64,000 bases of DNA from Dehalococcoidia bacterium (GCA_040902555.1 JBBDXC010000010.1:2309-66308); one strand, 5' to 3'; counted from the stretch's first letter, positions 4,177 through 63,074 are shown. Made by a program: numbers and translations. The notes: generated from the letters alone by a model not told the origin.

Positions 4177-4232
4177 AAGTTCAGGCTCCGGCTGGACGAG
4201 AGTCCGAGGGCGATTATAGGGAAGCCCACCTT

Positions 4233-18377: not shown

Positions 18378-18450
18378 CTCGAAAGGCTACCAACCGCGTC
18401 GCTGATCGAGCTGCCGAAGGGTACGCCCCCCCCCCGCAGCCACCCCTCAA

Positions 18451-18485
18451 CCTCACCCTGCCCTCTCCTTGCCAAGGAGAGGGTT
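18451..18485. repeat. REP-like bipartite palindromic repeat (copy A)
   Basis: CCTCACCC box followed by palindrome CCCTCTCC-TTGCCAA-GGAGAGGG; intergenic between the EamA and CoA-binding genes. Confidence 0.6.
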
Positions 18486-32021: not shown

Positions 32022-32098
32022 GGGCGATTAGCTCAGTTGGCTAGAGCGCTTGCTCGACACGCAAGAGGTCACTGGTTCAAGTCCAGTATCGCCCACCA
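32022..32098 (+). tRNA. tRNA-Val (anticodon GAC)
   Basis: Cloverleaf by eye: acceptor GGGCGAT/ATCGCCC, D-arm GCTC...GAGC, anticodon stem CTTGC/GCAAG with loop TCGACAC, T-arm with GGTTCAAGTCC, encoded CCA. Confidence 0.9.
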
Positions 32099-32198
32099 CC
32101 TTTTGAATCTGCGTTCGGGGCATTTGGCGCGGCCGTCCATCGCCCGAAGGTGCCACTGCGGTGCCTATTCGCGAGAACCGGGCACCAGGTGCATCAGT

Positions 32199-32274
32199 GG
32201 GGACATAGCTCAGCCGGGAGAGCGCTGCGTTCGCATCGCAGAGGTCGGGGGTTCGAATCCCCCTGTCTCCACCA
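32199..32274 (+). tRNA. tRNA-Ala (anticodon CGC)
   Basis: Acceptor GGGGACA/TGTCTCC with G3:U70, anticodon stem CTGCG/CGCAG with loop TTCGCAT, T-loop GGTTCGAATCC, encoded CCA. Confidence 0.9.
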
Positions 32275-32325
32275 CCCCCCTGCTCGGATGGCCGCCAACG
32301 CTGGCTAAGATAGACCTTGTTCGGT

Positions 32326-32402
32326 GCCCCCGTAGCTCAGGTGGATAGAGCAACGGTTTCCTAAACCGTGTGTCGGGTGTTCGAGTCACCCCGGGGGTAC
32401 CA
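32326..32402 (+). tRNA. tRNA-Arg (anticodon CCT)
   Basis: Acceptor GCCCCCG/CGGGGGT, anticodon stem ACGGT/ACCGT with loop TTCCTAA, T-arm GGGTG-TTCGAGT-CACCC, encoded CCA. Confidence 0.85.
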
Positions 32403-36423: not shown

Positions 36424-36508
36424 TCGGTCAGCCTTTCCGGGATGACGGCAACTCCATCCTCGCACGGGGCCAGCGTCGCTCGTGCGCCGGACCTACATTC
36501 GAAGGCGC

Positions 36509-36591
36509 GAGTTGTTTGATGGCCGCAGGGTTCATCTCAGATTCGCCAGCCAGTTGTTGGTTTGTTTGAGTTGTTTGACTTGTTTGATCCT
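36509..36591 (-). repeat. AC-rich ~80-nt conserved element, copy 2 (upstream of Fe-ADH-like gene)
   Basis: Reverse complement reads GATCAAACAAGTCAAACAACTCAAACAAACCAACAACTGGCTGGCGAATCTGAGATGAA...TCAAACAACTC; about 51 of 53 core nt identical to copy 1. Confidence 0.7.
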
Positions 36592-36622
36592 CCCCCCTTG
36601 CCAAGGGGAGGGGAAAGGAGGG
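36592..36622. repeat. REP-like palindromic repeat (copy B)
   Basis: CCCCCCTTGCCAAGGGGAGGGG hairpin immediately abutting AC-rich copy 2. Confidence 0.5.
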
Positions 36623-36890
36623 GCCGCCGCCGTCGGATCCGGAGGACCGATGTGGAACCAGCGAACCCCGCCCCGCCATCTCACCCGTGGCCCCCTACGC
36701 CGAGGCTCATTCTTCGAATTCCGTAAAGAGAGGGGGTAGAGTGAGCGGTCGAAGATCAGCGTGAAACTGGGCGGGCGTGGATAGTTGCACCGGGACTCCC
36801 CAAGGGTGGTTGAGAGAGCTTGAGAGACGAGAGCGACAGGTTTGGTCGTTCTGGTGGCTGCTATTCGCGATCTCTCATCGCGAGCAAAGC

Positions 36891-36937
36891 CGGGACACCT
36901 CTCCCCTAGCCCCTCTCCCGGCCGGGAGAGGGGGACA
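36891..36937. repeat. REP-like bipartite palindromic repeat (copy C)
   Basis: ACCTCTCCCCTAGCCCCTCTCCCGGCCGGGAGAGGGGGA; same family as copies D-K. Confidence 0.6.
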
Positions 36938-37064
36938 TCGGCGGGGGCCGGCCGGGTTTCACTCAAAGTCGCGTGTACGTCTTGGATGGGACGACGAGGC
37001 GGTGTCTTTCTGGGCGGCGCACTGCATCGTCCGCCGGACATCCGCCCCGACAATGCGCGGGACG

Positions 37065-37248
37065 CTATTTGCTGTCGTCCTCGATGTTCGCCCTGACCAT
37101 GGCTATAAGCTCCGGGGTGGGGCTCCAGGTCGTGGGTGGCGGCGTGCTCGGCCACAAGCTTCATGAGCTCTTCTTCGCTTTCCGCCCGAACGACGTGCCC
37201 ACAACCGGAAGCCGGATTGACCTTCCCGCAATCAACAACCATTGCCAT
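37065..37248 (-). pseudogene. DUF1059-type small metal-binding protein, frameshifted at a C4 run (or assembly indel)
   Basis: N-terminus MAMVVDCGKVNPASGCGHVVRAESEEELMKLVAEHAATHD matches small DUF1059 proteins. After the GGGG/CCCC run near 37095-37103 the +1 frame continues ...PTPELIAMVRANIEDDSK and stops at 37065 (60 aa if one C is removed). The 238-aa in-frame ORF in the track has noncoding-like codon usage and runs through repeats. Confidence 0.6.
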
Positions 37249-37363: not shown

Positions 37364-38056
37364 ATGTACCTCAAGCTCCTCCTCGCGCTTGGGCTGATAG
37401 CCCTCGGTCTATTCGAGGCCACCGCCGACAGCCAGGCCGGCCCTCCTCTGTGCGCCGGCAAGGAAGCGACGATCTTTGGTCAGTCGGGCACGATCAACGG
37501 CACGACAGGCAACGACGTAATCGTCGGCTCGGCCGCGAACGACGTGATCCTCGGAAGGGGTGGCAACGACACGATCTGCGCCAGCGCTGGCAGCGACGGC
37601 CTTAATGGGGGCGCCGGAAACGACAAACTCTACGGACAGGCGGGGGACGATGACCTCCTCGGCGGGGCCGGGACCGATGTCCTGTCCGGCGGTGGCGGTC
37701 CTGACCTCTGCAACGGCGGGGGCGGCACGGAGAAGACCATCGGCTGCGAAGTCCTGACGAACCTCACCATAGTTGCCACCGACTTCAACTTTGACATGAA
37801 CCAGTTCAACGTCCGTCCCAACACGACCGTCAGGGTTGCCTTGAACAACAAAACCAACGGCACGCCGCACAACGTAGCGTTCTACACGGACCCGGCGCAT
37901 ACCGACCTTGTGGCCAACACAGCCCTTGTGCCGGGTCCCGCCGTGCGAGAGATAAGCTTCCTGGCTCCAGAGGAGGGAGTGACCTACTTCTACAAGTGCC
38001 AGCAGCATGCAGAGATGAATGGCCAAATGACGACGAACAACGTCTTCCCGCCCTGA
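37364..38056 (+). CDS. Secreted protein with RTX-type glycine-rich repeats and a C-terminal type-1 copper (cupredoxin) domain, paralog 1
   Basis: Signal peptide (LLLALGLIALGLFEATA); repeats GNDVIVGSAANDVILGRGGNDTI...GGAGNDKLYGQAGDDDLLGGAGTDVLSGGGGPD; copper-ligand pattern H...C-x2-H-x5-M (PHNVAF ... YFYKCQQHAEMNGQM); GAAGGAAG SD before ATG. Confidence 0.75.
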   Translation: MYLKLLLALGLIALGLFEATADSQAGPPLCAGKEATIFGQSGTINGTTGNDVIVGSAANDVILGRGGNDTICASAGSDGLNGGAGNDKLYGQAGDDDLLGGAGTDVLSGGGGPDLCNGGGGTEKTIGCEVLTNLTIVATDFNFDMNQFNVRPNTTVRVALNNKTNGTPHNVAFYTDPAHTDLVANTALVPGPAVREISFLAPEEGVTYFYKCQQHAEMNGQMTTNNVFPP

Positions 38057-38084: not shown

Positions 38085-38756
38085 GTGAGAGCAACCATCC
38101 TCCTCCTTATGGCCGTGGCCGCGGCGGTCTTTAGCCTGTCAGGCAGCTCAGCCGGACCGTATTACGGGCAGACCTGCGACGGGGATCCGGTTACCAACAA
38201 CAACACGCCCACGGCGGGCGATGATGTGCTGGTCGGCACTTCTGGTGCGGACAACATCAACGGCGGCGGCGGCCGCGACAAGATCTGCGGTGGGCCGGGC
38301 GCCGACCTCCTTTCCGGGGGCGCCGGGGCAGACGAGCTCTTCGGCGAGGGCGGCAACGACCGCCTCTTCGGCGGCGGCGCCGTTGACACCCTGAGCGGCG
38401 GGCCCGGGACGAAGGACCGCTGTGATGGCGGGGCCGGGTTGGAAACATCGCTCAACTGCGAGATCTTCACCAACCTGACTGTGAAGACGGCCCCTGGCTT
38501 GGAGTTCGCACCCACTACCTTCACGGTCCCGCGGTCCAAGCAGATCAACGTGACACTGAACAACCTCGGCGGGACCCACAACATCGACTTCTACCAGGGC
38601 ACGGACTCATCTGGGGTCTTTGTGGCCGGCACGGATCTCGCCAACGGCCCGAACATCGACGACGTAACCTTCACGACGCCTTCCGAGCCGGGTTCGTACT
38701 ACTACGAGTGCGCGCTCCACGGCTCAGGTATGAGCGGCACCTGGGTGGTGCAGTAA
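38085..38756 (+). CDS. Secreted protein with RTX-type glycine-rich repeats and a C-terminal type-1 copper (cupredoxin) domain, paralog 2
   Basis: GTG at 38085 with AGGA 5 nt upstream; signal peptide; repeats GTSGADNINGGGGRDKICGGPGADLLSGGAGADELFGEGGNDRLFGGGAVDTLSGGPG; copper ligands THNIDF ... YYYECALHGSGMSG. Confidence 0.75.
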   Translation: MRATILLLMAVAAAVFSLSGSSAGPYYGQTCDGDPVTNNNTPTAGDDVLVGTSGADNINGGGGRDKICGGPGADLLSGGAGADELFGEGGNDRLFGGGAVDTLSGGPGTKDRCDGGAGLETSLNCEIFTNLTVKTAPGLEFAPTTFTVPRSKQINVTLNNLGGTHNIDFYQGTDSSGVFVAGTDLANGPNIDDVTFTTPSEPGSYYYECALHGSGMSGTWVVQ

Positions 38757-38961: not shown

Positions 38962-39879
38962 ATGAAACCGGGCCTGCCCGCGCCGCCCGACTACCTGACG
39001 CTGGATCAGGCGCTGGCCTCCGGCTTTCTGAAGATCTCTGAGGTCTCAGCCGGCGGTAGCGTGCCGAATTTAAGGGCCGAGAACCTCGGGGCGCGTTCCG
39101 TGCTCCTCCTAGACGGCGAAGAGCTGGTCGGCGCCAAGCAGAACCGCGTCCTCAACCTAACGCTGCTTCTCGCGGCGAACAGCACCACCACGATCCCGGT
39201 CTCCTGCGTGGAGGCAGGACGCTGGAGCTCGCGGAGCGCCGAGTTCGCCAGCGCGCAGCGCATGCACTTCGCGGCCGGCCGGGCTAAGCGCCAGGAACAC
39301 GTCACGGAGTCGCTCAATCTGCGCGGCGACCGGCGCTCGCGGCAGGGTGAGGTCTGGGAGGAGATCGCCGCCAAGTCGAGTGAGCTATCAGCGCCCTCGG
39401 CGACCGGGGCCATGGCGGACATCTACCAGAAGCACCAGCACACGGTGGACGAGTACACGTCGGCCTTTTCGGTCTCATCCGAGCAGGTGGGGGCGGTCTT
39501 CGCCGTCGGAGGCGACGTGCTGGGCTGCGAAGTCTTCGAGCATCCAGATGTTCTCCAACGCGTCTTCCCCAAGCTGCTCGGTAGCTACGCCCTCGAGGCC
39601 GTGGGCAAGGCGGCCGGTGGTGAACCCGCGGAGGGCGCGGCGCGAATCTTTCTCGAGAGCGTTGCCGCCGCTAACTACCGCGAGTTTCCGGCCCTCGGCC
39701 TGGGAAGAGATATGCGCATATCCGGCGACTCAATCACTGGCGGCGGACTGCTGCTGGACGAGAGGTTCGTCCACATGGCCGCCTTCCGCCAGGCTGGCTC
39801 GACGGCACGTCGCACCGCCGGGGCGACCGGCATGGCGCGCCCCAGCCAGCGCGCGCGGAGGCCAGCCTCCGATAGGTGA
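38962..39879 (+). CDS. Hypothetical protein (conserved-looking N-terminal domain, Arg-rich C-terminus)
   Basis: 305-aa ORF with GC-rich third positions; no motif I can assign to a named family. Confidence 0.6.
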   Translation: MKPGLPAPPDYLTLDQALASGFLKISEVSAGGSVPNLRAENLGARSVLLLDGEELVGAKQNRVLNLTLLLAANSTTTIPVSCVEAGRWSSRSAEFASAQRMHFAAGRAKRQEHVTESLNLRGDRRSRQGEVWEEIAAKSSELSAPSATGAMADIYQKHQHTVDEYTSAFSVSSEQVGAVFAVGGDVLGCEVFEHPDVLQRVFPKLLGSYALEAVGKAAGGEPAEGAARIFLESVAAANYREFPALGLGRDMRISGDSITGGGLLLDERFVHMAAFRQAGSTARRTAGATGMARPSQRARRPASDR

Positions 39880-47827: not shown

Positions 47828-47855
47828 GTTCAGCAAGCCGGGTTAGACCTGGCTA

Positions 47856-47890
47856 AGAGGGGCCCCCTTCACAGGGGGCCCCTCTTTCGT
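47856..47890 (+). terminator. Rho-independent terminator between small ORF and birA
   Basis: AGAGGGGCCCCC-TTCACA-GGGGGCCCCTCT hairpin followed by TTCGT. Confidence 0.6.
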
Positions 47891-53096: not shown

Positions 53097-53129
53097 GCTT
53101 CGCCCCGCCGCCCCGCCGCCCCGCCCCGA

Positions 53130-53169
53130 CCTCACCCCTAACCCCTCTCCGCAAGCAGAGAGGGGGAAC
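53130..53169. repeat. REP-like bipartite palindromic repeat (copy D)
   Basis: CCTCACCCCTAACCCCTCTCCGCAAGCAGAGAGGGGGAAC, preceded by a (GCCCCGCC)x3 tract. Confidence 0.65.
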
Positions 53170-53260
53170 GGCGAAGGGAGCGCCAGGCCTCTGTATGTTG
53201 CGAATTGACCCGGAGGTGTGCCGCCGCCTGAGATCGAGTACGCCCCGCCACACCACCCCC

Positions 53261-53302
53261 ATCTCACCCCCTAACCCCTCTCCGCACCCGGAGAGGGGAG
53301 TT
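53261..53302. repeat. REP-like bipartite palindromic repeat (copy E)
   Basis: ATCTCACCCCCTAACCCCTCTCCGCACCCGGAGAGGGGAGTT. Confidence 0.65.
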
Positions 53303-53357
53303 ACCGGGGAAGCGCCCGAGTGACGCCTGCCCCGGCGCCGCGCAGAATCGGAGGGAC

Positions 53358-54173
53358 GTGAGTAAGCATCCGGGCGACTTCTCCGGTGTCGACATCCGCT
53401 GGGATACCGAGGACCTGTTCCTGGGCGACCTCGGGCCGGACTCCTTCTACCTCTTCGACCGCATGCTGGAGACGACGCTGGACGAAGTGGCCTCGCGGGA
53501 TGGGGTGGGGCCGTGGTTCGGGGGGCGCGTCCTGGACATCGCCTGCGGCGCCGCCGGCGACGTCGCCCAGCTCGTCCCCAACGGCTGGGAGGCCCACGGC
53601 ATGGAGCCGTCGTCGACGATGCTCGGCTTCGCGCGGGAGCGGGAGGCCCGGGAGGGTGGCGAGGTGCGGTTGGTGCGGGGCATCGCCGAAGCGCTGCCCT
53701 ACGCGGACGACAGCTTCGACCGGGTCATGTGCAAGGGCTCGTTCGACCACTTCGCGCGGCCCAGGGCGGCCATCGAGGAGATAAGGCGGGTTCTGCGGCC
53801 CAACGGGCGTTTCGTTATGTCGCTGGCTAACTTCGAGAGCCTGTCCTGCCGCCTGGGGCGGCGGCTGCATCCCGTGATAAAGGCGACGAACGCCGACTTC
53901 CGCAACGGCTCCCGACCATACTGGGTGATCCCCGGCGACCACACCTTCAAGGGCGACCTGCCCACGATCCTCCGGCTGGTCGACGGCGTTCTGGACCTGG
54001 AGGGCTACCAGGGCGTCTCGCTGATGTGGGCCTTCCCCTGGTGGGTAGGCTTCCTGAAGGCGGTGCCGGACCGGGCCGCGAGCGTGGCGCTGCGCCTGGC
54101 CAACCGCATGGGCCGGCAGCACCCTTCGAAGTCCGACGTGATCGTGGCCTCCTGGGTCAAGCGCCCACGCTAG
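53358..54173 (+). CDS. Class I SAM-dependent methyltransferase
   Basis: SAM motif I (RVLDIACGAAGD) and motif post-I/II (DDSFDRVMCKGSF), then LRPNGRFVMS. Confidence 0.85.
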   Translation: MSKHPGDFSGVDIRWDTEDLFLGDLGPDSFYLFDRMLETTLDEVASRDGVGPWFGGRVLDIACGAAGDVAQLVPNGWEAHGMEPSSTMLGFAREREAREGGEVRLVRGIAEALPYADDSFDRVMCKGSFDHFARPRAAIEEIRRVLRPNGRFVMSLANFESLSCRLGRRLHPVIKATNADFRNGSRPYWVIPGDHTFKGDLPTILRLVDGVLDLEGYQGVSLMWAFPWWVGFLKAVPDRAASVALRLANRMGRQHPSKSDVIVASWVKRPR

Positions 54174-54204
54174 CAGAAGCCGGAAGCGCCCCCGCCCCAC
54201 CCCA

Positions 54205-54248
54205 ACCTCACCCCCTGCCCCCTCTCCGTAAACGGAGAGGGGAAAGCT
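54205..54248. repeat. REP-like bipartite palindromic repeat (copy F)
   Basis: AACCTCACCCCCTGCCCCCTCTCCGTAAACGGAGAGGGGAAAGC, between convergent genes. Confidence 0.65.
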
Positions 54249-54258
54249 CGTCAGGCCG

Positions 54259-55140
54259 TCAATCAAAAGCTGGGGCCTCCGACCCGAGGCGAATGCCGGC
54301 GTCGGAAGACTGGCCGGCCAGCCGGGCGCGGACCAGGGTGTAGGCGATGACGACGAGGAAGACTGAGGCCTGGAGCAGGACAATCGCCGCGCCTGATGCG
54401 ACATCCCACCAGTAGCTGATGTAGATGCCCATGAAGCCGGTCACGGCGCCCAGGACCGTTGAGATGACCATCATGCGGGAGAAGCTGTTCGTCAGCAGGC
54501 GGCCCGTGATTGGGGGCACGACCAGCGTGGCCGCGATCAGCGTGACGCCGAGGATACGCATCGTGGCGACGACGACGGCCGCCAGAATCAGGGCGAAGGC
54601 GGTGTCAACCCAGCCGCTGCGCACGCCGTAGGCCGGCGCAACCTCGGCGTCGAAGGTCATGAACAGCAGCTGCTTGTAGAGGACGGCGATCAGCAGGGCT
54701 ACCCCGACGGCGACGCCGATCAGGATGTAGATGTCGGTCGAGGTCACCCCCAGGACGTTGCCGAAGAGGGCGGCCTCGAAGTTGCGGCTGAAGCGGCTGG
54801 CCCGGCTGATGATCGCCACGCCCAGCGCGAAGCTGGCCGTCGTGACGACGCCGATGGCCACGTCGGCGCTGATCTGGCGCTTGCGCGTGGCTAGGTTGAT
54901 CAGCAGCGCCGAGGCGAAGCCCCAGAGACCGGCCCCGATGTAGAAGTTGATCGAGGCGACAAAGCTGACCACCGCCCCGCCGAAGATGGCGTGCGAGAGA
55001 CCGTGGCCGATGTAGCTCATGCGCCTGAGGACGACGTAGACGCCGACGAGGCCACAAAGCCCCCCGGCCATCGTCGCCGCGAGGAGCGCGTTCTTGAAGA
55101 ACTCGTACTGCAGAGGCTCGCTGAAGGAGATGTCAGGCAT
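54259..55140 (-). CDS. Metal (Zn/Mn-type) ABC transporter permease
   Basis: 293-aa multi-TM protein typical of ZnuB/MntB-type permeases; overlaps the ATPase gene stop. Confidence 0.9.
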   Translation of the reverse strand: MPDISFSEPLQYEFFKNALLAATMAGGLCGLVGVYVVLRRMSYIGHGLSHAIFGGAVVSFVASINFYIGAGLWGFASALLINLATRKRQISADVAIGVVTTASFALGVAIISRASRFSRNFEAALFGNVLGVTSTDIYILIGVAVGVALLIAVLYKQLLFMTFDAEVAPAYGVRSGWVDTAFALILAAVVVATMRILGVTLIAATLVVPPITGRLLTNSFSRMMVISTVLGAVTGFMGIYISYWWDVASGAAIVLLQASVFLVVIAYTLVRARLAGQSSDAGIRLGSEAPAFD

Positions 55141-55972
55141 CGTGGCCCTCGTGGGGGCTCTCGCCGACGAAGACCATGCCCTGGTGGTGGAAGACCACCA
55201 TTGCCGCCCCGTAGGTGGCGCTCAGGACCTCTGGGGTCATGATCTCGGCGGGTGGGCCCTCAGCGATGACGCGCTGGCTTAGGCAGACGACCCAGGGCAG
55301 GTGGGCGGCGGCGGAGTTCAGGTCGTGCGTCGTCATCACGATCGTGATGCCTTCATGATTGAGGTCGTGGAGCAGGTGGAGGACTTCGTCGCGGGTCTTG
55401 ATGTCGATGCCGCTGGTGGGCTCGTCGAGCAGCAGCAGGCGTGGCTTGCCGACGAGAGCCCGCGCCAGGAAGACCCGCTGCTGCTGGCCGCCCGATAGCT
55501 CGCGGATGTGGCGGCCGGCAAGGTCGGCGATCCCCAAGCGCTCCATCATGTGTCTCGCCTCACCGCGGTCTTCCCTCGACGCCCAGGGGACGAAGGGCCG
55601 GCTGGACCAGCGGCCCATCAACACGACCTCTTCAACCGTTACCGGGAAGTTCCAGTCGACGGTTTCGAGCTGCGGCACGTAGCCGACGAGCGGGCTGGCG
55701 GACGCCACGGCTCGTGTCAGTGAGCCAGACGAGGGCTTGACGATGCCGAGGATGAGCCGCAACAGGGTCGTCTTGCCCGAGCCGCTGGGACCCAGGATGC
55801 CCATGAACTGGCCATCGTGGATGGTCAGATTGAGGTTGCGGACGGCGAATATCTTCCCGCCGTAGCCGGCGCTGACGTTGTCGAAGCGGACGAGGGGCTC
55901 GCCTTCCTGCCACGCTTCGACGGCGGCCGGGTGAAGGAGGCCGCTGAGCGGGGCGGGGACGGTGAGCGTCAT
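55133..55972 (-). CDS. Metal ABC transporter ATP-binding protein
   Basis: Walker A (GPSGSGKTT), ABC signature (LSGGQQQRV), Walker B (LLLLDEP). Confidence 0.9.
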   Translation of the reverse strand: MTLTVPAPLSGLLHPAAVEAWQEGEPLVRFDNVSAGYGGKIFAVRNLNLTIHDGQFMGILGPSGSGKTTLLRLILGIVKPSSGSLTRAVASASPLVGYVPQLETVDWNFPVTVEEVVLMGRWSSRPFVPWASREDRGEARHMMERLGIADLAGRHIRELSGGQQQRVFLARALVGKPRLLLLDEPTSGIDIKTRDEVLHLLHDLNHEGITIVMTTHDLNSAAAHLPWVVCLSQRVIAEGPPAEIMTPEVLSATYGAAMVVFHHQGMVFVGESPHEGHDA

Positions 55973-56994
55973 TGTGGGTACTCGGCTCCCGTGCCTTCGA
56001 TGAGGTTTGCCTCTTCGATCCCTTCCAGGGCGTCCACGTTGCCGCCGAGGGCGGGGATCATGATGCGCATGTTGCGCAGGATGAGGCCGATGTAGGAGTG
56101 CTCGGGGTCTCCGGGCTCGCCGGGGAGGTCGTCGTCGCGCAACTCGTCGATGTAGTCGGCGCCACTTTCGGAGGCGATCTGCTCGAGAACGTCGCTGGGG
56201 AACTCCTCCGAGCCGAAGACCGCGGTCACCCCTTCGGACTCAATCTGGTCGATCAGGTCGGCGACTTCGCTGGCCGAGGGCTCGCCGAAGTCGGAGGGCT
56301 GGACGGCGCCGATAACCTCGAAGCCTGTCTCGAGCGCGAAGTAGGCGTAGGAATCGTGGTAGGTGAGAAGTTTGCGGTTCTCCTCGGGGATCGTCTGCAC
56401 GGCTTCCTTGACCGCTGCGTCCAGCTCCTCGAGGCGCGCGATATAGGCAGCCGCGTTGTCTTCGTAGTAGTCGGCGTTGACCGGATCGAGATCAACGAGG
56501 CTGTCGCGGATTATCTCGGCGTAGCGGATGCCGAAGGGAACATTGGGCCAGAGGTGAGGGTTAGGGGCACCGCCGTCCTCGGGAAAGCTGAAGTCGAACT
56601 GGTAATCCTCGGGGGTGATCGTCTGGTCGCCGAGGCTGATGATCTCCGTGTCGTCCTTCTTCACGTCCTCCGCCAGATCGACGGTGGGCTCTTCAAGCTG
56701 GAGGCCGTTGACGAAGATGATGTCGGCGTCGGAGAGGATCTCGGCATCCGAGGGAGCCGGCTCGAAGGTGTGAGAGTTGACGCCCTCGGGGACGATGCCG
56801 ACCAGGCGGATACGGTCGCCGGCGATGTTCTCCACGATGTTGGTGATCGGCGAAACGGTCGTGACGACCGTCGGCACGCGGGCGAACTCGCCGGAGTCGC
56901 TCGGCGCGTAGTCGTCGTCATCGCCGCAGGACGCGGCGAGGAGAGAAGCTACGATGAGGGCTGAGCATAGTAACGCGTCGGGGGTTATCCGCAA
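55969..56994 (-). CDS. Metal ABC transporter substrate-binding lipoprotein (ZnuA/TroA-like)
   Basis: Lipobox LLAASC followed by GDDDDY; cluster-9-type SBP with an acidic His/Asp/Glu-rich region; likely TTG start near 56994 (ORF track start 57276 runs through a repeat). Confidence 0.8.
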   Translation of the reverse strand: MRITPDALLCSALIVASLLAASCGDDDDYAPSDSGEFARVPTVVTTVSPITNIVENIAGDRIRLVGIVPEGVNSHTFEPAPSDAEILSDADIIFVNGLQLEEPTVDLAEDVKKDDTEIISLGDQTITPEDYQFDFSFPEDGGAPNPHLWPNVPFGIRYAEIIRDSLVDLDPVNADYYEDNAAAYIARLEELDAAVKEAVQTIPEENRKLLTYHDSYAYFALETGFEVIGAVQPSDFGEPSASEVADLIDQIESEGVTAVFGSEEFPSDVLEQIASESGADYIDELRDDDLPGEPGDPEHSYIGLILRNMRIMIPALGGNVDALEGIEEANLIEGTGAEYPQ

Positions 56995-57036
56995 GAAGGG
57001 CCGTCGAGTTAGTGCGCGCCTGGCCCCTCCCCGCCC

Positions 57037-57090
57037 GACCTCACCCCCGCTGCGGCTGGCCCTCTCCGCACCCGGAGAGGGAGGGGTTCC
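57037..57090. repeat. REP-like bipartite palindromic repeat (copy G), inside the regulator-transporter operon
   Basis: GACCTCACCCCCGCTGCGGCTGGCCCTCTCCGCACCCGGAGAGGGAGGGG, between the Fur-family gene stop and the SBP start. Confidence 0.65.
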
Positions 57091-57104
57091 TGGCAGGGAC
57101 GCGA

Positions 57105-57521
57105 TCACTGGCATTCGTTGCAGGTCCCGAAGACGGCGAAATGGTCGATGTCCGGCCGGAAGCCGGTGGAGCTGGTGATCTGGGAGCCGAGGTCTTCGAA
57201 GTAGCGGTGCTCGAGCTGCTCGATGCTGCCGCAGCGCTTGCAGATCAGGTGGTGGTGGGGCTCCTCGCGGATCCACTCGTAGACGGTCTCCCCTTCGCCT
57301 ATATCGGTCTCACTGACCAGGCGCAGGTCCTTGAGGACGGTGAGGGTGCGATAGACCGTGGAGCCGTCGACGTAGGCGAACTGGCGGCGAACCTCGGCAA
57401 GGATGTCGGCTGCTGACAGGTGGCCGGGAGCCTTGCGGCAGGCGGAGACGATGAGCATCCGCTGAGGGGTAAGCTTGTGGCCGGCCTCTTTGAGGAGGAC
57501 CGCGGTGGGGTCGTCGGGCAA
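57105..57521 (-). CDS. Fur family transcriptional regulator (Zur-like)
   Basis: Fur-type HTH (KLTPQRMLIVSACRKAPGHLSAADI) and metal sites (HHHLICKRCG ... CNEC); TTG at 57521 preceded by GGAGG (ORF track start 57554). Confidence 0.85.
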   Translation of the reverse strand: MPDDPTAVLLKEAGHKLTPQRMLIVSACRKAPGHLSAADILAEVRRQFAYVDGSTVYRTLTVLKDLRLVSETDIGEGETVYEWIREEPHHHLICKRCGSIEQLEHRYFEDLGSQITSSTGFRPDIDHFAVFGTCNECQ

Positions 57522-57534
57522 GTCGCCTCCGAAG

Positions 57535-57548
57535 GTAGTTGCAACTAC
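57535..57548. promoter_or_regulatory. Perfect 7-7 palindrome GTAGTTGCAACTAC just upstream of the Fur-family gene RBS (candidate operator)
   Basis: 14-bp perfect inverted repeat at 57535-57548, overlapping the position expected for the promoter or 5' leader. Confidence 0.4.
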
Positions 57549-57622
57549 TTGCAAATGCTAGTGCTGGTGGCATAGACACGCAATGAAAGCGCCCTGTCAC
57601 GACAATCACGTGCGCCAGGCCC

Positions 57623-57682
57623 GGGGCAGGTATCACGATTCATCCGGGAGGTTCGTAATCCCACCGTTGTGATACCTGCCCC
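57623..57682. other. Long hairpin (14-bp perfect stem, ~32-nt loop) between YloV and Fur-family genes
   Basis: GGGGCAGGTATCAC ... GTGATACCTGCCCC; no U-tract on either strand. Confidence 0.4.
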
Positions 57683-57759
57683 TGCGGGGGCGGGCCGGAC
57701 TGGGCACCGGGGCGGAATGGGGTTCCGGCGGCAGTTGGGTCGCGCCGACGACGGCGCGG

Positions 57760-59397
57760 CTATTCGACGGACAGGAAGTAGTCGTAGTAGGGCTGGCCGC
57801 CGCGGACCACCTGGGCCTCTACGTCCGGAAAGCGGCCTTCGACCTGGCCGGCCAGCGCCGATGCTTCGGCGGCGGTCACGCTTTCGCCGTGGTAGAGGGT
57901 GACGAGAGAGCTGTCGGGGCTGACCATGCGGTCCAGGGCGTCGACCACGGCGGCGTCGAGGGCCGGCGTCGAGGCTACGAGGTCGCCGTCGACCATGGCG
58001 ATGTAGTCGCCCTCGCGCACGTCGATCCCGCTCAGCTTGACCGTGCGCACGGCCTTGCAGACTTCGGCATAGCGGATGGCGCGGGCGGCCTCGCCCATGG
58101 CCCGCGCATTCTCCTCCAGGTCCTTATCGGGCGAGAAGGAGAGGAGCGCGGCGATGCCCTGGGGGATGCTGCGCGCCTCGACGACTAGGGTTGGCTTGCC
58201 GGCGACGGTGGCGGCCTGGCGCGCCGCCATGACGATGTTTTTGTTATTGGGCAGCACGATGACGCTCTCGCCCGGCGCGGACTTGATGGCCTCGACGAGA
58301 GCGGCGGTGCTGGGGTTCATCGTCTGGCCCCCCTCCACAACGCTGGACGCACCCATGCTTTTCAGCACGTCGATGATGCCGTCGCCGACGCCGACCGCGA
58401 CGACGCTGATCGCGCTCGCGGGCGCCCGTGAGGGCCGCGCAGCAAGCTGCTGGTGCTGCAGCTCCATGTTGTCGACCTTGACGCGGGCCAGCGGGCCTAG
58501 CGACGTGGCGTAGGAGATGATGCTGCCCGGGTCCTGGGTGTGGACGTGCACATGCGCGGCGTGCTCGTCGCCGACGACCAATAAAGAGCGGCCCAAGGGC
58601 TCCAACTCCGTGCGCATGGTCTCGATCGACAGTCCGTCGGCCTTGATCACGAATTCGGTACAGTAACCGAACGCCTGCTCGCCCTCGTGCAGATCGTGCG
58701 CCTGAGCCAACCAGCCTTCGTCGATGGCGCCGAAGTCCTTGCGGTCCCCAGTCGTCAGCTGGATCCCCTGGAGGTAGCTCAGGGCGCCCTCAAACATGAC
58801 GTAGAGGCCCTGGCCGCCGGCGTCGACGACCCCGGCCTCCTTCAGCACCGGGAGGAGGGCGGGCGTGCTGTCGACGGCGACCCGGGCGGCGCGCACGGCC
58901 TCCTCGAGGATGTCTGTTATGTCGTCTACAGGGCTCCCCGACCGGCGCAGTGCCGCCTCGCCGGCGGCGCGACAGACTGTCAGGATTGTGCCCTCCAAAG
59001 GGTTGGTAACTGCCTTGTAGGCCGCCTGCGTCGCCTGCCCGAAGGCATCGGCGAGCTCCCCGGGGTCCACTTCGTCCTTGCCGGCCATACCCGCCGCCAG
59101 GCCGCCGATGATCTGGGAGAGGATCACGCCGGAGTTGCCGCGCGCGCCCATGAGGGCGCCATCGGCCATCGCCCGGGCAACGGCAGCCGCGCTATCGCCA
59201 GAAGCGTCGGCGGCGGCGTCCATCGTGGCGCGCATCGTCAGGAACATGTTGGTGCCGGTGTCGCCGTCTGGGATCGGGAAAACGTTGATGGCGTTGATAG
59301 CCTCGGCGTTCTGCTCGAGCCAGTCGGTAGCCGCGAGGAACATCTCGCGGAGCGCGGTGCCATCGAGATGCGAGCGCTTCGGCGGAGCTACAACCAA
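57760..59397 (-). CDS. DAK2 domain fusion protein YloV
   Basis: N-terminal DAK2 domain motif (FPIPDGDTGTNM) and family-typical length (545 aa); divergent from rpmB. Confidence 0.9.
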   Translation of the reverse strand: MVVAPPKRSHLDGTALREMFLAATDWLEQNAEAINAINVFPIPDGDTGTNMFLTMRATMDAAADASGDSAAAVARAMADGALMGARGNSGVILSQIIGGLAAGMAGKDEVDPGELADAFGQATQAAYKAVTNPLEGTILTVCRAAGEAALRRSGSPVDDITDILEEAVRAARVAVDSTPALLPVLKEAGVVDAGGQGLYVMFEGALSYLQGIQLTTGDRKDFGAIDEGWLAQAHDLHEGEQAFGYCTEFVIKADGLSIETMRTELEPLGRSLLVVGDEHAAHVHVHTQDPGSIISYATSLGPLARVKVDNMELQHQQLAARPSRAPASAISVVAVGVGDGIIDVLKSMGASSVVEGGQTMNPSTAALVEAIKSAPGESVIVLPNNKNIVMAARQAATVAGKPTLVVEARSIPQGIAALLSFSPDKDLEENARAMGEAARAIRYAEVCKAVRTVKLSGIDVREGDYIAMVDGDLVASTPALDAAVVDALDRMVSPDSSLVTLYHGESVTAAEASALAGQVEGRFPDVEAQVVRGGQPYYDYFLSVE

Positions 59398-59562
59398 TGA
59401 ATCCTCCCGGGCCGGCGCTTCTTGTCCGCCGAATGGGGCAATGCTAGCCTCTATTTTGTAAAGTCGGCAATCTACCTCTCCCTTGCCCTCTCGGGGTCCC
59501 CGCGCGGTTCACAAGCCGCCGGGGGTTAAGGAGAGGGAATTAATTTTGGTAAGGAAACCCCA

Positions 59563-59775
59563 ATGGCAACTGGGTGTACCGTTTGCGGCAAGACGACGAG
59601 CTTCGGCCGCAACATCAGACACAAGAGCTCCGGCCGCTGGCAGCGCAAGGCGCACAAGACCAGCAGGACGTTCCGCGCCAATCTGCAGAAGCAGGTGGTC
59701 GACATCGGCGGCGTGCGCCGCCGGCGGGTGATCTGCACGCGCTGTTTGCGGACGCAGATGAAGCAGGCTATCTAA
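59563..59775 (+). CDS. rpmB: 50S ribosomal protein L28 (zinc-ribbon form)
   Basis: 70-aa basic protein with CxxC...CxxC (CTVCGK ... CTRC) and bL28-like sequence; AAGGAAA SD. Confidence 0.9.
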   Translation: MATGCTVCGKTTSFGRNIRHKSSGRWQRKAHKTSRTFRANLQKQVVDIGGVRRRRVICTRCLRTQMKQAI

Positions 59776-59860
59776 GCCCGGGCCGAACTTCTCGAGACGG
59801 TAGAAGCTGATGAGGGGCTCTTTTTACGACTCCACCGCTAAGCGTGCATGGAATCTCGAT

Positions 59861-59898
59861 CACCCTCACCTGGCCTCTCCCTCAAGGGAGAGGGGAGC
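59861..59898. repeat. REP-like bipartite palindromic repeat (copy H)
   Basis: CACCCTCACCTGGCCTCTCCCTCAAGGGAGAGGGGAGC. Confidence 0.6.
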
Positions 59899-59966
59899 TG
59901 ACTCAAGCCTTATCGATCTCGCTGATGTTTCTGTTAGGGCGAAACAGGAACGCCCCCGCGCTGCCC

Positions 59967-60009
59967 AACCTCACCCCCTAGCCCCTCCCTGCAAGCAGAG
60001 AGGGGGAAG
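59967..60009. repeat. REP-like bipartite palindromic repeat (copy I)
   Basis: AACCTCACCCCCTAGCCCCTCCCTGCAAGCAGAGAGGGGGAAG. Confidence 0.65.
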
Positions 60010-60061
60010 AGACTGGCGGCTTTCACGGCGACGCACACCGAATGCGGAGTGCTCCCTGGCC

Positions 60062-60586
60062 CTAGGGCCTTCCCGGAGACCCAAGGCTCGGCAACAGCTT
60101 GCCGCCATTGTTGATCGCCAACAACAGGACTGTGATTACCAGCACTACGACGAGGCTTATGGTCTGGACGGCGGCGTCGCCGTTGCCCAACTCGTCGGCG
60201 TGGATGACGTGGAAGATGAAGTGGGGCACCTGCCAGACCAGGCTGCCGATCAGGGCAACATCAACCACGCGCCGCTCCAGGTAGTACGCCGCCAGACCGA
60301 GGACCGCGGCCAGCGCCAGGTTGAGGGCGCCGAAGTCACGGACCATGTGCTCGTTGTAGGCCCCCAGGGGGGCAACCCACGAGCGTCCGCCACCGGGAAA
60401 GTCCGTATGGAAGTTCTCGGGAGCGAGCAGGGCCCAAAGGCCGGGCAGCGCAGCAAATACTGCCAGGAGGATCAGACCGGGCCGCAGCCAGCGGCGCCCG
60501 ACGAAGCTCAACAATTTCCATCCCCATTTCCACACCGTGCTGGCCAGTCTACAGCCGGCGATGACCGTCAACATGCCACCCGTCAC
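60062..60586 (-). CDS. Hypothetical integral membrane protein
   Basis: 174-aa ORF with GC-rich third positions and four hydrophobic helices; the overlapping plus-strand ORF 59810..60637 is judged antisense. Confidence 0.65.
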   Translation of the reverse strand: MTGGMLTVIAGCRLASTVWKWGWKLLSFVGRRWLRPGLILLAVFAALPGLWALLAPENFHTDFPGGGRSWVAPLGAYNEHMVRDFGALNLALAAVLGLAAYYLERRVVDVALIGSLVWQVPHFIFHVIHADELGNGDAAVQTISLVVVLVITVLLLAINNGGKLLPSLGSPGRP

Positions 60587-60604
60587 CGCTCCGCTGTGAC
60601 AGAG

Positions 60605-61507
60605 CTACGCCATGTAAGTTGCCAGTCCCTCACGTAGGGAACGGGGCTGGATGCCCAGTGCGGTCTGGAGGTCGGTGTTGTCAACGACGGCGTCCATCGA
60701 GGCGAACTCAACGCCGTCAGGGGTTAGCGGTGGGCCCGGGAGGATGCTGGCCACCGATGCAACGGCCTTCATCAAGCCCTTTGGCTGATGAAGGATCGGC
60801 CGCTTGCGGCCGGAAACCTCGAGGGCGGTGCGCACGACCTCATCCATGGAGTGAACCTCGGGGCCGCCGATTTCTAGAGTCTTATTCTGAGCCTCTGGAC
60901 GCTCGAAGCTCTCGGCCACGGCGCGAGCGACATCGTCGACGAAGACGGGCTGGAGTTTCTGCTTCGAGCCGTCGCCGATCACGGGTATGAAGGGCAGGAA
61001 GCGACCGAACCCGAGCATACGGTTGAGCGACTTGTCGCCGGGCCCGTAGACCCACGACGGTCGGATTATCGTGAAGGCGACCCCGCTGTTGCGCACAGCC
61101 TCCTCAGCGGCCCATTTGGCGCGGAACCAGTGGTAGCGGGCCTCGGGGCCGGCGCCGGCGCCACTGAGATAGACCAGGTACCCGACGCCGGCCTCGCGGG
61201 CCACACCGGCGACGGTCTCGGCGCCTTTCTGGTCGACATCCTCGAAGGTGCGGCCGGCGCTCTTCTTCTCCATTGGAAAATTGTCGAAGGCCAGCGAGAT
61301 CACTACGCCCTCGGCTCCGCGGACCGCCTCCAGGACCTGGGCGGGCTCGCGGGCATCGGCGGTGCGGACCTCGATGCCCAAACCTGGGAAGACCTTGTCG
61401 ACCTTCGCGGCGTCCCTGCTGACCACAGCGACCGGCTTGCCACGTCCGTGCAGCTCTTTGACGATGGCCGAGCCGATAAAGCCTGTCCCGCCGATGACGA
61501 CGAACAT
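60605..61507 (-). CDS. NAD(P)H-binding protein (NmrA/complex-I-NDUFA9-like atypical SDR)
   Basis: Rossmann motif MFVVIGGTGFIGSAIVKEL at the chosen ATG start (61507); ORF track start 61570. Confidence 0.8.
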   Translation of the reverse strand: MFVVIGGTGFIGSAIVKELHGRGKPVAVVSRDAAKVDKVFPGLGIEVRTADAREPAQVLEAVRGAEGVVISLAFDNFPMEKKSAGRTFEDVDQKGAETVAGVAREAGVGYLVYLSGAGAGPEARYHWFRAKWAAEEAVRNSGVAFTIIRPSWVYGPGDKSLNRMLGFGRFLPFIPVIGDGSKQKLQPVFVDDVARAVAESFERPEAQNKTLEIGGPEVHSMDEVVRTALEVSGRKRPILHQPKGLMKAVASVASILPGPPLTPDGVEFASMDAVVDNTDLQTALGIQPRSLREGLATYMA

Positions 61508-61559
61508 CTGGTCCTCCTCGCCGGCAACGCCGGCTGATCTCATTCTTAGGCTCGCCGGT

Positions 61560-61604
61560 AAACGACGCACGAAAGGGGCGCCGACCCGAAGATCGGCGCC
61601 CCTT
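61560..61604 (-). terminator. Terminator-like hairpin after small membrane protein gene
   Basis: AAGGGGCGCCGA-CCCGAAGA-TCGGCGCCCCTT (12-bp stem); on the minus strand followed by UUCGUGCGUCGUUU. Confidence 0.4.
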
Positions 61605-61655
61605 CGGTATCCCGCAGGGAGGACGAGGCAAGCCTCGTCCCTAACAGAAATTGGG

Positions 61656-61943
61656 CTAGTAGCCGTTCTGCTCGGTCAGGCGGCGCGCCTCGGCCACTTC
61701 GGTCGAGGGGCGGAGGAGCTTATAGAAGAGGGCCAGCGAGATGATCGAGGGGACCCAGAGGCCCACAAACTGCGAGGCTTCCTTCTTGCCGATCAGGTAG
61801 AGGAACGCGGACGCGACCATCGAGCCGATGGCCCCGAACCAGTAGCCGGTCAGGGGGACCTGCTCAATTGCCTTCGTGGAGTGCTCGGCGAACTGGGCGC
61901 CGGTCTTGGTTGCGTCGCGTGCTTCGACTATGGTGTCTGCCAT
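61656..61943 (-). CDS. Hypothetical small membrane protein
   Basis: 95-aa ORF with one or two TM helices (YWFGAIGSMVASAFLYLIG, LWVPSIISLALFYKLL). Confidence 0.55.
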   Translation of the reverse strand: MADTIVEARDATKTGAQFAEHSTKAIEQVPLTGYWFGAIGSMVASAFLYLIGKKEASQFVGLWVPSIISLALFYKLLRPSTEVAEARRLTEQNGY

Positions 61944-62051
61944 GAATAACCCTTCCTTGTGTTTGGTCTCTCAACCAGTTTCAAGGGGAAGGGATAACAG
62001 GCGCGTAGACCTCGGCGCAGAGCCTGACAGACGCATAAAGTTCCGGGCGGA

Positions 62052-62092
62052 AACCTCACCCCCGGGCGCCCTCTCCGAAAACAGAGGGGGAG
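62052..62092. repeat. REP-like bipartite palindromic repeat (copy J)
   Basis: AACCTCACCCCCGGGCGCCCTCTCCGAAAACAGAGGGGGAG. Confidence 0.65.
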
Positions 62093-62095
62093 ACT

Positions 62096-62223
62096 TAGTT
62101 GGCGAGTACCACGCCGATCATCGAGAAAACGGTAACGAGAAAGATTGGCACTCCCAGCACGATCATGAACATTGCGAAGCCGGCGTAGCCGGAGTCGTCG
62201 CCTACGTCTAAGCGGTCTTTCAC
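62096..62223 (-). CDS. Candidate 42-aa single-TM small membrane protein (below ORF-track size cutoff)
   Basis: GTG at 62223 preceded by GGAGG at ~7 nt; encodes VKDRLDVGDDSGYAGFAMFMIVLGVPIFLVTVFSMIGVVLAN; stop abuts REP copy J. Confidence 0.35.
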
Positions 62224-62509
62224 TGGCTGCCTCCTCGTCTTCTTTCGCCGATTCTACTCGCTCCGGCGCGCTGGCACCCCCGACTGGCGAGGGCGACTGT
62301 GCTTCTCTCTGACCGGTGTCGTCGGTGCCTGCCACAGGAGGGGAGGGTTGCGCTGCTATATGAGATGCATGGCCCCGATGAGATGCGCAACCCTCCCCTC
62401 CTGTTCGCGTGAGACGCCGGTGCCGTAGCTGGTCCCGCGGGCAGCTAGGGCTAGACTGGATGGGGGCTCGTGGAAGCTAAGGGCTGCCGGCGCGAGACTA
62501 AAGCAGACC

Positions 62510-62550
62510 ACATCACCCCCTGGGCCCCCTCTACGCACACGGAGAGGAGG
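62510..62550. repeat. REP-like bipartite palindromic repeat (copy K), overlapping the rpsP ribosome-binding region
   Basis: ACATCACCCCCTGGGCCCCCTCTACGCACACGGAGAGGAGG; its 3' GGAGAGGAGG arm lies 14 nt upstream of the rpsP TTG start. Confidence 0.6.
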
Positions 62551-62564: not shown

Positions 62565-63074
62565 TTGATTCGCATCCGCCTCGCCCGCGTGGGCAAGAAG
62601 AAGCAGCCGAGCTATCGGCTTGTCGTCTCGACCCAGGAAGCGCCGCGTGACGGCCGCTTCATCGAGATCCTCGGCCACTACAACCCGCTGAAGAACCCCG
62701 CTGAGCTCGAGTTCAACGCTGAGCGGACCCGCGAGTGGATCGCCAAGGGCGCCCAGCCATCGGAGGCCGCTGCCAAGATTTTGGCGCGTGAGGGCATCGG
62801 CGAGGCCCCGCGGCGGGCGTCGAAGCCGCCAGCGCCGGCCAAGGCCCCTGCTGAAGCGGCCCCCAAGCCAGCACCGGCAGCGAAGGCGGAACCGGCCGCT
62901 CAAGCGGAGCCCGCCGCAGAGGCCGAGGCCGCCGCACCCGAGGCTCCTGAACCGGAACCGGCAACCGAAACCGAGGCCGCTCCCGCTGAAACTGAGCCCA
63001 CAGAGAACCAGGTGGAAGCTGCCGCGCCGGCTGACGGCGAGGGCGAGAAGGCAGTTGAGCAGCGACAGCCATGA
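62565..63074 (+). CDS. rpsP: 30S ribosomal protein S16 with long Ala/Pro/Glu-rich C-terminal extension
   Basis: N-terminal 80 aa is canonical bS16 (MIRIRLARVGKKKQPSYRLVV...HYNP); C-terminal ~90 aa is low-complexity; TTG start; stop overlaps the KH gene start. Confidence 0.9.
   Translation: MIRIRLARVGKKKQPSYRLVVSTQEAPRDGRFIEILGHYNPLKNPAELEFNAERTREWIAKGAQPSEAAAKILAREGIGEAPRRASKPPAPAKAPAEAAPKPAPAAKAEPAAQAEPAAEAEAAAPEAPEPEPATETEAAPAETEPTENQVEAAAPADGEGEKAVEQRQP

Follow-up and report, generated by a model that had tools for sequence, protein, structure and literature searches.

Escherichia coli and other proteobacteria carry short intergenic repeats that were called BoxC in the 1990s, PIT (potential intrastrand triplex) elements by Hoyne and Maher (2000 and 2002, as cited in PMC4666352), and TM_ECO by Holder et al. 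(2015, PMC4666352). Here, we analyzed a family of repeats in a 64,000-nucleotide (nt) stretch of a metagenome-assembled genome (MAG) of a Dehalococcoidia bacterium (Chloroflexota; GCA_040902555.1, JBBDXC010000010.1:2309-66308), called the window below and numbered from its first nucleotide. An earlier note, made from the sequence of the window, had described at least 11 copies of a bipartite repeat consisting of a C-rich box and a GC palindrome, and had likened them to repetitive extragenic palindromic (REP) sequences or miniature inverted-repeat transposable elements (MITEs). In our judgment these repeats are probably intrastrand triplex motifs of the BoxC/PIT/TM_ECO type, non-coding, gained in this lineage, and exerting their effect at the DNA level.

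The TM_ECO family has been counted at 3,610 copies in 262 proteobacterial genomes. In E. coli the elements are always intergenic, strain MG1655 has five inverted A+B pairs, and the published table has no clear strand bias (13 plus versus 10 minus). Oligonucleotides with the E. coli sequences gave triplex melting temperatures of 70 to 82 C and triplex signatures in circular dichroism (CD) and nuclear magnetic resonance (NMR), among them 18 sharp imino signals that fit a triplex and not a G-quadruplex. The elements caused a polymerase stop in primer extension, their loci were more variable across 56 E. coli strains, and the elements showed no connection with transposons, phages, or plasmids (PMC4666352). 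As far as the 2002 work of Hoyne and Maher is cited there, PIT elements in E. coli had neither promoter nor terminator activity.

The same E. coli sequences have been described from the G-quadruplex side as HPG1 and HPG2, with the layout GGGAGAGGG-TTA/CCG-GGGTGAGGG and a C-rich 5' flank (Kaplan et al. 2016, PMC5100583). They too are intergenic, near gene 3' ends, and reportedly conserved in other bacteria; that paper stresses the G-quadruplex, whereas the covariation presented below favors a mirror geometry, and the window copies have more G-runs. Repeats of Methanomicrobiaceae are likewise intergenic and G-rich, with an adjacent C-rich tract and a possible hairpin, antiparallel triplex, or G-quadruplex, but their block order is reversed (the C-tract is 3' of the G-runs), their sequence is different, and their hosts are archaea (PMC8044849). 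REP/BIME and REPIN-RAYT elements resemble the window repeats in being short, G/C-rich, intergenic, hairpin-forming, dispersed, and at times clustered. Unlike them, the window repeats have no GTAG or CGTC tag, no inverted doublets, and no RAYT gene in the window, and their core is not species-specific; REPs, for their part, have no third block mirroring the stem.

Anatomy of the repeats

Read on the plus strand, as in the earlier note, the repeats consist of a C-rich box and a brief spacer followed by CCCTCTCC-loop-GGAGAGGG, and CTCACCCC with a spacer 5' of the stem is seen in the sequences of all copies. All 11 sites are real, lie where that note had placed them, and have the layout it described, although the one at 36592 has another sequence within the same architecture and the one at 62052 is degenerate. 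Reverse-complementing TM_ECO sequences such as CCCTCTCCCTTGAGGGAGAGGGTTAGGGTGAGGGT yields this architecture (PMC4666352). Read on the G-rich strand, the unit runs from a pyrimidine arm through a loop, a purine arm, and a short loop to a G-rich third segment, and most copies conform to CCCCTCTCC-N6-GGAGAGGGG-N2-3-GGGGTGAGG. When the third segment of the minus-strand sequence GGAGAGGGG-TTA-GGGGTGAGG is laid against the purine arm, G falls on G four times, followed by T on A, G on G, A on A, and G on G twice. An antiparallel mirror rule that admits only G.GC, A.AT, and T.AT triads and tolerates a single mismatch is obeyed by nine family copies and by one variant; this rule was itself imposed in the search that found them. 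Because the box obeys these triad rules and covaries with the purine arm in mirror fashion (see below), the C-rich box is the complement of a G-rich reverse-Hoogsteen third strand that mirrors the purine arm of the hairpin, and is not a REP tag.

The window repeats share with BoxC/PIT/TM_ECO elements the Y-loop-R-loop-H order on one strand, the AGAG/TGAG core with G.GC, T.AT, and A.AT triads, a unit of about 56 to 58 nt, strictly intergenic placement in multiple copies, the lack of an associated transposase (for the window repeats, among the approximately 57 ORFs of the window), and marked differences in abundance between related lineages. Two copies, those at 53130 and 53261, have TTA as their second loop, as in E. 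coli "type A". We aligned the window copies with the MG1655 locus 164300-164900, where an E. coli pair was checked at 164547-164631. The copy at 59863-59893 (minus strand), whose register is near that of E. coli (GGGAGAGG / GGTGAGGG) and which comes nearest to the literal consensus, differs only slightly from E. coli K-12 TM no. 2 and has the same CTTGAG at the stem-loop junction; the longest exact word common to a window copy and E. coli is 9 nt.

The differences are equally definite. Since most copies are shifted by one G (GG-AGA-GGGG instead of GGG-AGA-GGG in the purine arm, with GGGG-TGA-GG as the third strand), we file the family as a variant member and not as strict TM_ECO. Window copies have an extra G-run tail after the third strand, their close pairs are direct and not inverted A+B pairs, 10 of 11 have the same orientation as against 13 versus 10 in E. 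coli, and their host belongs to the Chloroflexota, whereas the genomes of Holder et al. were proteobacterial. The window family is thus a register-shifted, G-tailed, uniformly oriented subfamily, in a Dehalococcoidia MAG, of a kind of repeat already described.

Enrichment in the window

We searched the window for the architecture without reference to sequence. The search required an 8-nt pyrimidine arm, a loop of 3 to 10 nt, an 8-nt all-purine arm, a loop of 1 to 16 nt, and a third block mirroring the purine arm, in which G had to face G and either A or T had to face A; the stem and the third block were each allowed a single mismatch. Ten motifs were found, compared with 0.075 +/- 0.30 (maximum, 2) in 200 dinucleotide-preserving shuffles of the 64-kb window, whose G+C content is 65.6%; within the window, the motif is therefore more frequent than base composition predicts. 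Nine of the ten belong to the family of the earlier note and are all G-rich on the minus strand, and the tenth is the variant at 36588-36624. An exact 23-base pattern, CTCACCC-N1-16-CCCTCTCC-N4-10-GGAGAGGG, occurred four times in the window and 0.00 times in 100 shuffles. The sub-motifs alone were barely enriched, with 56 matches to CCCTCTCCG at one mismatch (43.6 expected) and 10 matches to CCTCACCCCC (8.9 expected). A third strand was present in every intergenic purine/pyrimidine hairpin of the window, while two such hairpins within fakA (58121 and 58836) had none. An nhmmer profile made from the copies retrieved no extra members in the window.

The concentration of copies reported in the earlier note was borne out: 8 of the 11 lie within 53.1 to 62.6 kb, which holds 22% of the intergenic bases (binomial P = 5e-4, for a region picked after seeing the data).

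Mirror covariation of the G-runs

The 23-base pattern was searched in a one-genome-per-species collection and in IMG/VR viral contigs, and each yielded at least 120 stretches. The hosts among the 80 stretches listed included Planctomycetota, Chloroflexota (Dehalococcoidia and Anaerolineae), cyanobacteria, Bacteroidota, Verrucomicrobiota, Bifidobacterium, Acinetobacter, Pseudomonas, Xanthomonas, and others. Since the local G+C content of the host stretches ranges from 36% (Acinetobacter) to 73%, the cross-phylum core is not an artifact of composition.

The lengths of the G-runs in these instances allowed the candidate folds to be compared. With the purine arm written as G{a}AGAG{b} and the third strand as G{c}(T/A)GAG{d}, a triplex mirror predicts that c follows b and d follows a; a direct repeat or an alternative hairpin predicts that c follows a and d follows b; and a G-quadruplex predicts that all four correlations are positive. 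The 189 genome and window instances (183 from 120 genome stretches and 6 from the window) gave positive mirror correlations (rho of 0.57 for b and c and of 0.54 for a and d) and negative direct-repeat correlations (-0.32 for a and c and -0.38 for b and d). The mirror correlations were as strong as those between the Watson-Crick arms (0.50 and 0.41). In 202 viral instances from 120 viral stretches, the mirror rho values were 0.65 and 0.60 and the direct ones -0.35 and -0.43. The pattern fixes a at 2 or more, b at 3 or more, c at 3 or more, and d at 1 or more, which biases counts of asymmetry but not the rank correlations; the register (4,3,3,4), which runs contrary to this bias, nevertheless occurred 13 times. 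The covariation of the G-runs fits the mirror of a triplex and not a G-quadruplex, an alternative hairpin, or a direct repeat.

At the position where both triads are legal, the third strand carried T and not A in 178 of the 189 genome and window instances (178:11) and in 186 of the 202 viral ones (186:16), and the AGAG/TGAG core was near-invariant across phyla and viral contigs. Close pairs across phyla were mostly inverted (37 versus 10), as in E. coli, whereas the two window pairs are direct. Cross-phylum instances lay inside stop-free stretches of at least 200 codons in 49% of cases versus 85% for the background, a weak contrast given that G/C-rich genomes have long spurious open reading frames (ORFs).

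Apparent gain of the copies in this lineage

The closest relatives that could be used, at 68 to 72% RecG identity (contigs L202, L203, and L204; 41.7 kb), contained no motifs. In two of these comparisons the spacer between recG and the methyltransferase gene measured 43 and 57 nt, compared with 262 nt and two copies in the window. Judged from these sequences, this lineage seems to have acquired its copies, which suits the earlier proposal of an active or recently active family, while the REP/MITE part of that proposal is unsupported. A metagenome scan with FakA found relatives of at most 47% identity. The 846 kb around these distant fakA homologues contained two family members, each immediately following a fakA stop codon. 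Other Chloroflexota copies examined have no G-run tail, and we therefore do not count the tail as part of the conserved core.

The two members near distant fakA genes lie on unrelated metagenome contigs with 53% G+C (L182:2191-2226 and L191:1725-1758), 9 to 21 nt past the stop; fakA also adjoins two copies in the window, but on its opposite side. The order recG, methyltransferase, Fur is kept in one relative (L202:2897-5173; 71% RecG identity) when compared with window positions 53358-57554. The Fur-linked transporter is a znuACB-type ATP-binding cassette (ABC) system in the window and a NicO-like permease in that relative, so the repeat-bearing region has been rearranged.

Orientation

The G-rich strand is the minus strand in 10 of 11 copies (two-sided binomial P = 0.012, for copies that are clustered). 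Relative to transcription, the G-rich strand is the sense strand of five copies and the C-rich strand that of four, and one copy lies between convergent genes. Mixed transcription sense combined with a bias to one DNA strand points to a logic at the level of DNA rather than RNA. Bulk GC skew was positive or about zero in every 4-kb bin of the window. When the skew at third codon positions was split between plus- and minus-strand genes, the coding effect was about -0.165 and the strand effect about +0.07 for the plus strand, which is probably the leading strand. The triplex-prone G-rich strand would then be the leading-strand template, which is less exposed as single-stranded DNA, and the orientation would be as expected if copies that block polymerases on the lagging-strand template are selected against.

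Individual copies and gene context

Genes were modeled from ORFs ranked by their third-position G+C content (GC3) and from Pfam matches. In this model all 11 copies are intergenic and none is inside a coding sequence, as the earlier note had stated. That note had further placed copies "often between convergent genes", which holds for the 54206 copy only, five spacers being co-directional and one divergent; the two tandem pairs it had listed (53130/53261 and 59861/59967) are both present, as direct pairs. Between 49.8 and 63.8 kb, the gene order is degV, recG, two copies, an S-adenosylmethionine (SAM)-methyltransferase gene, one copy, znuB, znuC, and znuA (minus strand), one copy, fur, fakA, two copies, a 174-amino-acid (aa) gene, an epimerase gene, a 95-aa gene, two copies, rpsP, and rimM.

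All copies described in this section are G-rich on the minus strand unless stated otherwise. Their first loop measures 4 to 7 nt, and their second loop is 2 to 3 nt in most cases. Three copies, at 53109-53166, 53242-53299, and 54186-54243, have a common 58-nt unit owing to the G-run tail, for example GGGGTGGGGCGGGGGCG, after the third strand. The first begins 34 nt past the recG stop codon, and its core at 53130-53165 reads CCCCTCTCT-GCTTGC-GGAGAGGGG-TTA-GGGGTGAGG before the tail. The second (core, 53262-53298; second loop, TTA) lies upstream of the SAM-methyltransferase gene and forms with the first a direct pair, 133 nt from start to start. The third (core, 54206-54243) separates the convergent stops of the methyltransferase gene (54173) and the znuB-like gene (54259). 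One contig of an independent short-read assembly (Logan SRR27977660, L001) is 100% identical to window positions 53138-55501 and ends inside the 53130 copy; such repeats break assemblies.

The copy at 57039-57081, with a long second loop of 11 nt, lies between the fur stop (57105) and the TTG start of znuA (56994). Since that TTG precedes a lipoprotein signal peptide (LLAASC), the copy is truly located between the two genes, within the fur-znuACB metal-transporter operon in which it had been reported. The copy at 59863-59893 forms a direct pair with that at 59970-60005, which has two G:T pairs in its stem, and the latter is flanked by the 174-aa gene (stop, 60062) and fakA (start, 59397). The degenerate copy at 62054-62090 has an intact box (CCTCACCCCC) but a stem cut to 6 bp, and was missed by the architecture search. 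In the diverged copy at 62513-62550, upstream of rpsP, the purine arm on the plus strand is GGAGAGGAGG, which ends 14 nt ahead of the TTG start at 62565 and likely doubles as the Shine-Dalgarno region of rpsP; the reported overlap with the ribosome-binding region is thereby upheld.

Farther upstream in the window, the copy at 18449-18483 has the G strand CCCTCTCC-TTGGCAA-GGAGAGGG-CA-GGGTGAGG and lies between a coenzyme A (CoA)-binding-domain gene (stop, 18547) and an EamA transporter gene (start, 18377), both on the minus strand. The copy at 36897-36933, downstream of a DUF1059 gene, has the third strand GGGGAGAGG, with A.AT triads at sites where other copies carry T.AT. The variant at 36588-36624, on the plus strand and thus in the opposite orientation, has the different sequence CCTCCCC-loop-GGGGAGGGG-AAA-GGAGGGG. 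Both lie in a 600-nt non-coding stretch (36466-37069) that also holds a T/G-rich GTTTG-like run at about 36550-36590. A DUF1059-like ORF on the minus strand (36532-37248) matches Pfam in its first 38 residues only and continues stop-free for 238 aa across both repeats, probably as a spurious extension or through a lost stop codon.

Rfam at its gathering thresholds, applied to the whole window, returned three tRNAs only, which form a plus-strand cluster at 32022-32399, and matched no copy. A perfect 14-bp inverted repeat (AAGAGGGGCCCCCT/AGGGGGCCCCTCTT) at 47855-47886, not of the triplex family, lies about 210 nt past a Mur-ligase stop (47641) and just upstream of a biotin/lipoate ligase gene (47898), and may be a transcript-end hairpin. 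Two adjacent paralogues at 37364-38056 and 38085-38756 each encode RTX calcium-binding repeats together with a plastocyanin/azurin-like copper-binding domain, and an ARPP-1 domain gene (38962-39879) follows them.

Forms of the core in other genomes and in viral contigs

In other lineages the core is embedded in longer units and tandem arrays of their own. Arrays with periods of 72, 78, and 39 nt were seen at L325:2577-2829, L025:59-255, and L265:2002-2115, respectively, the core being part of a longer unit. A CRISPR-like reading of the viral and Bacteroidales arrays (72 and 78 nt) was discarded, as the "spacers" are repeated too and the arrays are plain tandem repeats. In ten genome loci (L007, L010, L012, L053, L070, L071, L075, L083, L091, and L101), we found "double" motifs, in which one hairpin has a third strand on both sides, so that each DNA strand holds a full triplex motif around a shared stem, with overlaps of 21 to 27 nt.

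The viral contigs with the core are L206 to L325, and several (for example, L220, L226, L325, L212, L217, and L321) have three to seven copies in one orientation. Some IMG/VR contigs may be prophages or host fragments, and Holder et al. reported no association with phages or plasmids (PMC4666352). In one viral contig with 45% G+C (L220), three of five same-orientation copies are inside long ORFs (1895-1933, 4396-4434, and 6595-6633), one example being the ORF at 3797-5326 (509 aa). Coding runs along the G strand, which can be read without stops in one frame (PPSPFQGEGLGVR). These copies may be in-frame insertions into genes. In-frame insertion into genes is known for Rickettsia palindromic elements.

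Proposed mechanism

We propose the following course of events. When the G-rich strand is single-stranded, its two arms would pair as a Watson-Crick hairpin, and the third segment would turn back into the major groove and lie antiparallel to the purine arm, with G.GC, T.AT, and A.AT reverse-Hoogsteen triads, to give a purine-motif triple helix. In vivo, this fold may arise transiently during replication, repair, or transcription and may be what keeps the three blocks in register; the triplex would thus be the target of selection or propagation, and the uniform orientation would be an effect of replication. The most likely effect of a very stable transient fold in single-stranded DNA is that it would stall polymerases and raise the local rates of rearrangement and indels. 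The elements themselves, non-coding and free of genes, would be selfish or neutral passengers with local instability as their chief effect, and single copies may have side effects at the RNA level, such as a hairpin over the Shine-Dalgarno region of rpsP. We consider it less likely that they serve specifically as promoters, terminators, or REP-like elements. This proposal draws on our observations of anatomy, enrichment, intergenic placement, mirror covariation, and absence from relatives, and, from the literature, on the in vitro triplex, the polymerase stop, the lack of promoter and terminator activity, and the variability of the loci between strains. The suggestion of the earlier note that the repeats may act as recombination sites comes closest to the published phenotype, namely the greater variability of the E. 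coli loci between strains.

Several points weigh against this assignment or parts of it. The strict TM_ECO pattern, CCCTCNCCC-N3-6-GGGNGAGGG-N3-GGGNGAGGG, had no match in the window, and it is their architecture, in a shifted register, that places the repeats in the family, not a literal match to the consensus. The search pattern that supplied the instances for the covariation prescribes part of each of the three blocks, and the instances form subfamilies that possibly share descent, so that independent events are far fewer than instances. The near-invariance of AGAG/TGAG exceeds what triplex stability needs and hints at a sequence-specific factor. In window copies with five to six G-runs, a G-quadruplex is a real structural competitor. 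The orientation bias is that of 11 partly clustered copies, and the strand assignment comes from a modest GC3-skew decomposition (about +0.07) in a window with more coding bases on the minus strand. Finally, triplex folding in vivo is unproven, because dimethyl sulfate (DMS) footprinting in E. coli, a single attempt, did not detect the triplex and duplex DNA stayed in the B-form (PMC4666352).

Alternative explanations

A wider version of the triplex reading can be entertained, though we think it rather unlikely to hold in full: the core of about 35 nt would be a DNA element of many phyla and viral contigs whose mirror register is selected for an in vivo triplex, and which spreads without a transposase and with a bias for one replication strand. 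Its spread might rely, for example, on a single-stranded-DNA process of host or phage or on an unrecognized sequence-specific factor, and the strand bias is suggested by the orientation of 10 of the 11 window copies and by the uniformly oriented multi-copy viral contigs.

An action at the RNA level, as a terminator independent of a U-tract, as a 3' exonuclease barrier that stabilizes mRNA, or through sequestration of the rpsP Shine-Dalgarno region, seems unlikely to us as the primary role. The stems of the best copies are stable (-12 to -13 kcal/mol folded as DNA, with z-scores of -3.9 to -4.6, for the hairpin part only), several copies lie 24 to 64 nt past stop codons (of recG and the methyltransferase, fur, 174-aa, and CoA-binding genes), the two metagenome members follow the fakA stop closely, and the 62513 copy overlaps the rpsP Shine-Dalgarno region with its purine arm; the E. 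coli sites, too, lie near 3' ends and between operons (Kaplan et al., PMC5100583). On the other hand, no copy has a T-run and none passes a terminator scan, which gave five terminator-like sites in 52.9 to 62.7 kb, none at a copy, compared with 4.5 +/- 1.8 in shuffles. The transcription sense is mixed, and one copy lies inside the fur/znuA operon. The conserved, covarying third strand would be left unexplained, purine-motif triplexes do not form in RNA (introduction of PMC4666352), and the PIT elements of E. coli, in the 2002 results of Hoyne and Maher as that paper cites them, were inactive as terminators and promoters. The role as terminators or mRNA stabilizers envisaged in the earlier note thus appears improbable, while individual copies, for example the one at the rpsP ribosome-binding region, may have an RNA-hairpin side effect.

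That a G-quadruplex, in a switch with hairpin and duplex, and not the triplex is the relevant form we also regard as improbable. Five window copies have, with their tails, 5 to 6 runs of at least three Gs within 85 nt, CD evidence for both forms was given for HPG1/HPG2 (PMC5100583), and archaeal repeats show a K+-dependent equilibrium between triplex and G-quadruplex (PMC8044849). The covariation is nonetheless of the mirror type, with negative correlations between equivalent runs, the tail is absent from the other Chloroflexota copies, and the imino signals of the E. coli element are those of a triplex (PMC4666352). In the window copies, a G-quadruplex is a plausible competing fold owing to the tail, while covariation and published NMR favor the triplex.

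It is quite unlikely, in our estimate, that the core serves as the target of some widely conserved protein with sequence specificity (for instance, a factor of the nucleoid, of repair, or of replication) and that the mirror reflects how this protein recognizes DNA. Such a factor would account for the almost invariant AGAG/TGAG core and for the preference of T over A where both triads are legal. The G-run lengths, however, vary freely while the mirror is kept, which would be unusual for a protein site in duplex DNA, and we know of no protein with such recognition. No transcription-factor motif was associated with the E. coli sites (Kaplan et al., PMC5100583).

A REP/REPIN-type element, with a hairpin and 5' tag spread by a RAYT (an IS200/IS605-like Y1 HUH transposase) encoded elsewhere, is very unlikely: the plus-strand layout of a short box 5' of a G/C-rich hairpin is similar, the repeats are multi-copy, intergenic, at times paired, and gained in the lineage, and our inspection covered 64 kb of the genome only, but no copy sequence has a GTAG or CGTC tag, both close pairs are direct and not inverted REPIN doublets, no transposase or integrase is found among the approximately 57 ORFs of the window, the core occurs in dozens of phyla whereas REPs are species-specific, no REP/RAYT model predicts mirror covariation between box and stem, and Holder et al. 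found no mobile-element link in E. coli (PMC4666352). What endures of the REP/MITE comparison in the earlier note is the broad class, shared with REP and ERIC, of dispersed, intergenic, hairpin-bearing repeats; the specifics fail, as the core is common to many phyla and the box is a triplex third strand, and the suggested IS200/RAYT-type transposase is absent from the window.

Significance

For annotation, the 35- to 60-nt units should be masked as BoxC/TM-type repeats, and their annotation as small ORFs, terminators, or REPs should be avoided. The family was first described some 30 years ago; its cross-phylum and viral distribution, its mirror covariation, and its one-sided orientation sharpen the question of its function and spread. 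If the covariation survives an unbiased, phylogeny-aware census, it would be comparative evidence for an intrastrand DNA triplex under selection in cells, where the one footprinting attempt in E. coli did not show it (PMC4666352). The wider puzzle is the presence of one 35-nt triplex-shaped core in so many phyla and in viral contigs, and how it spreads.

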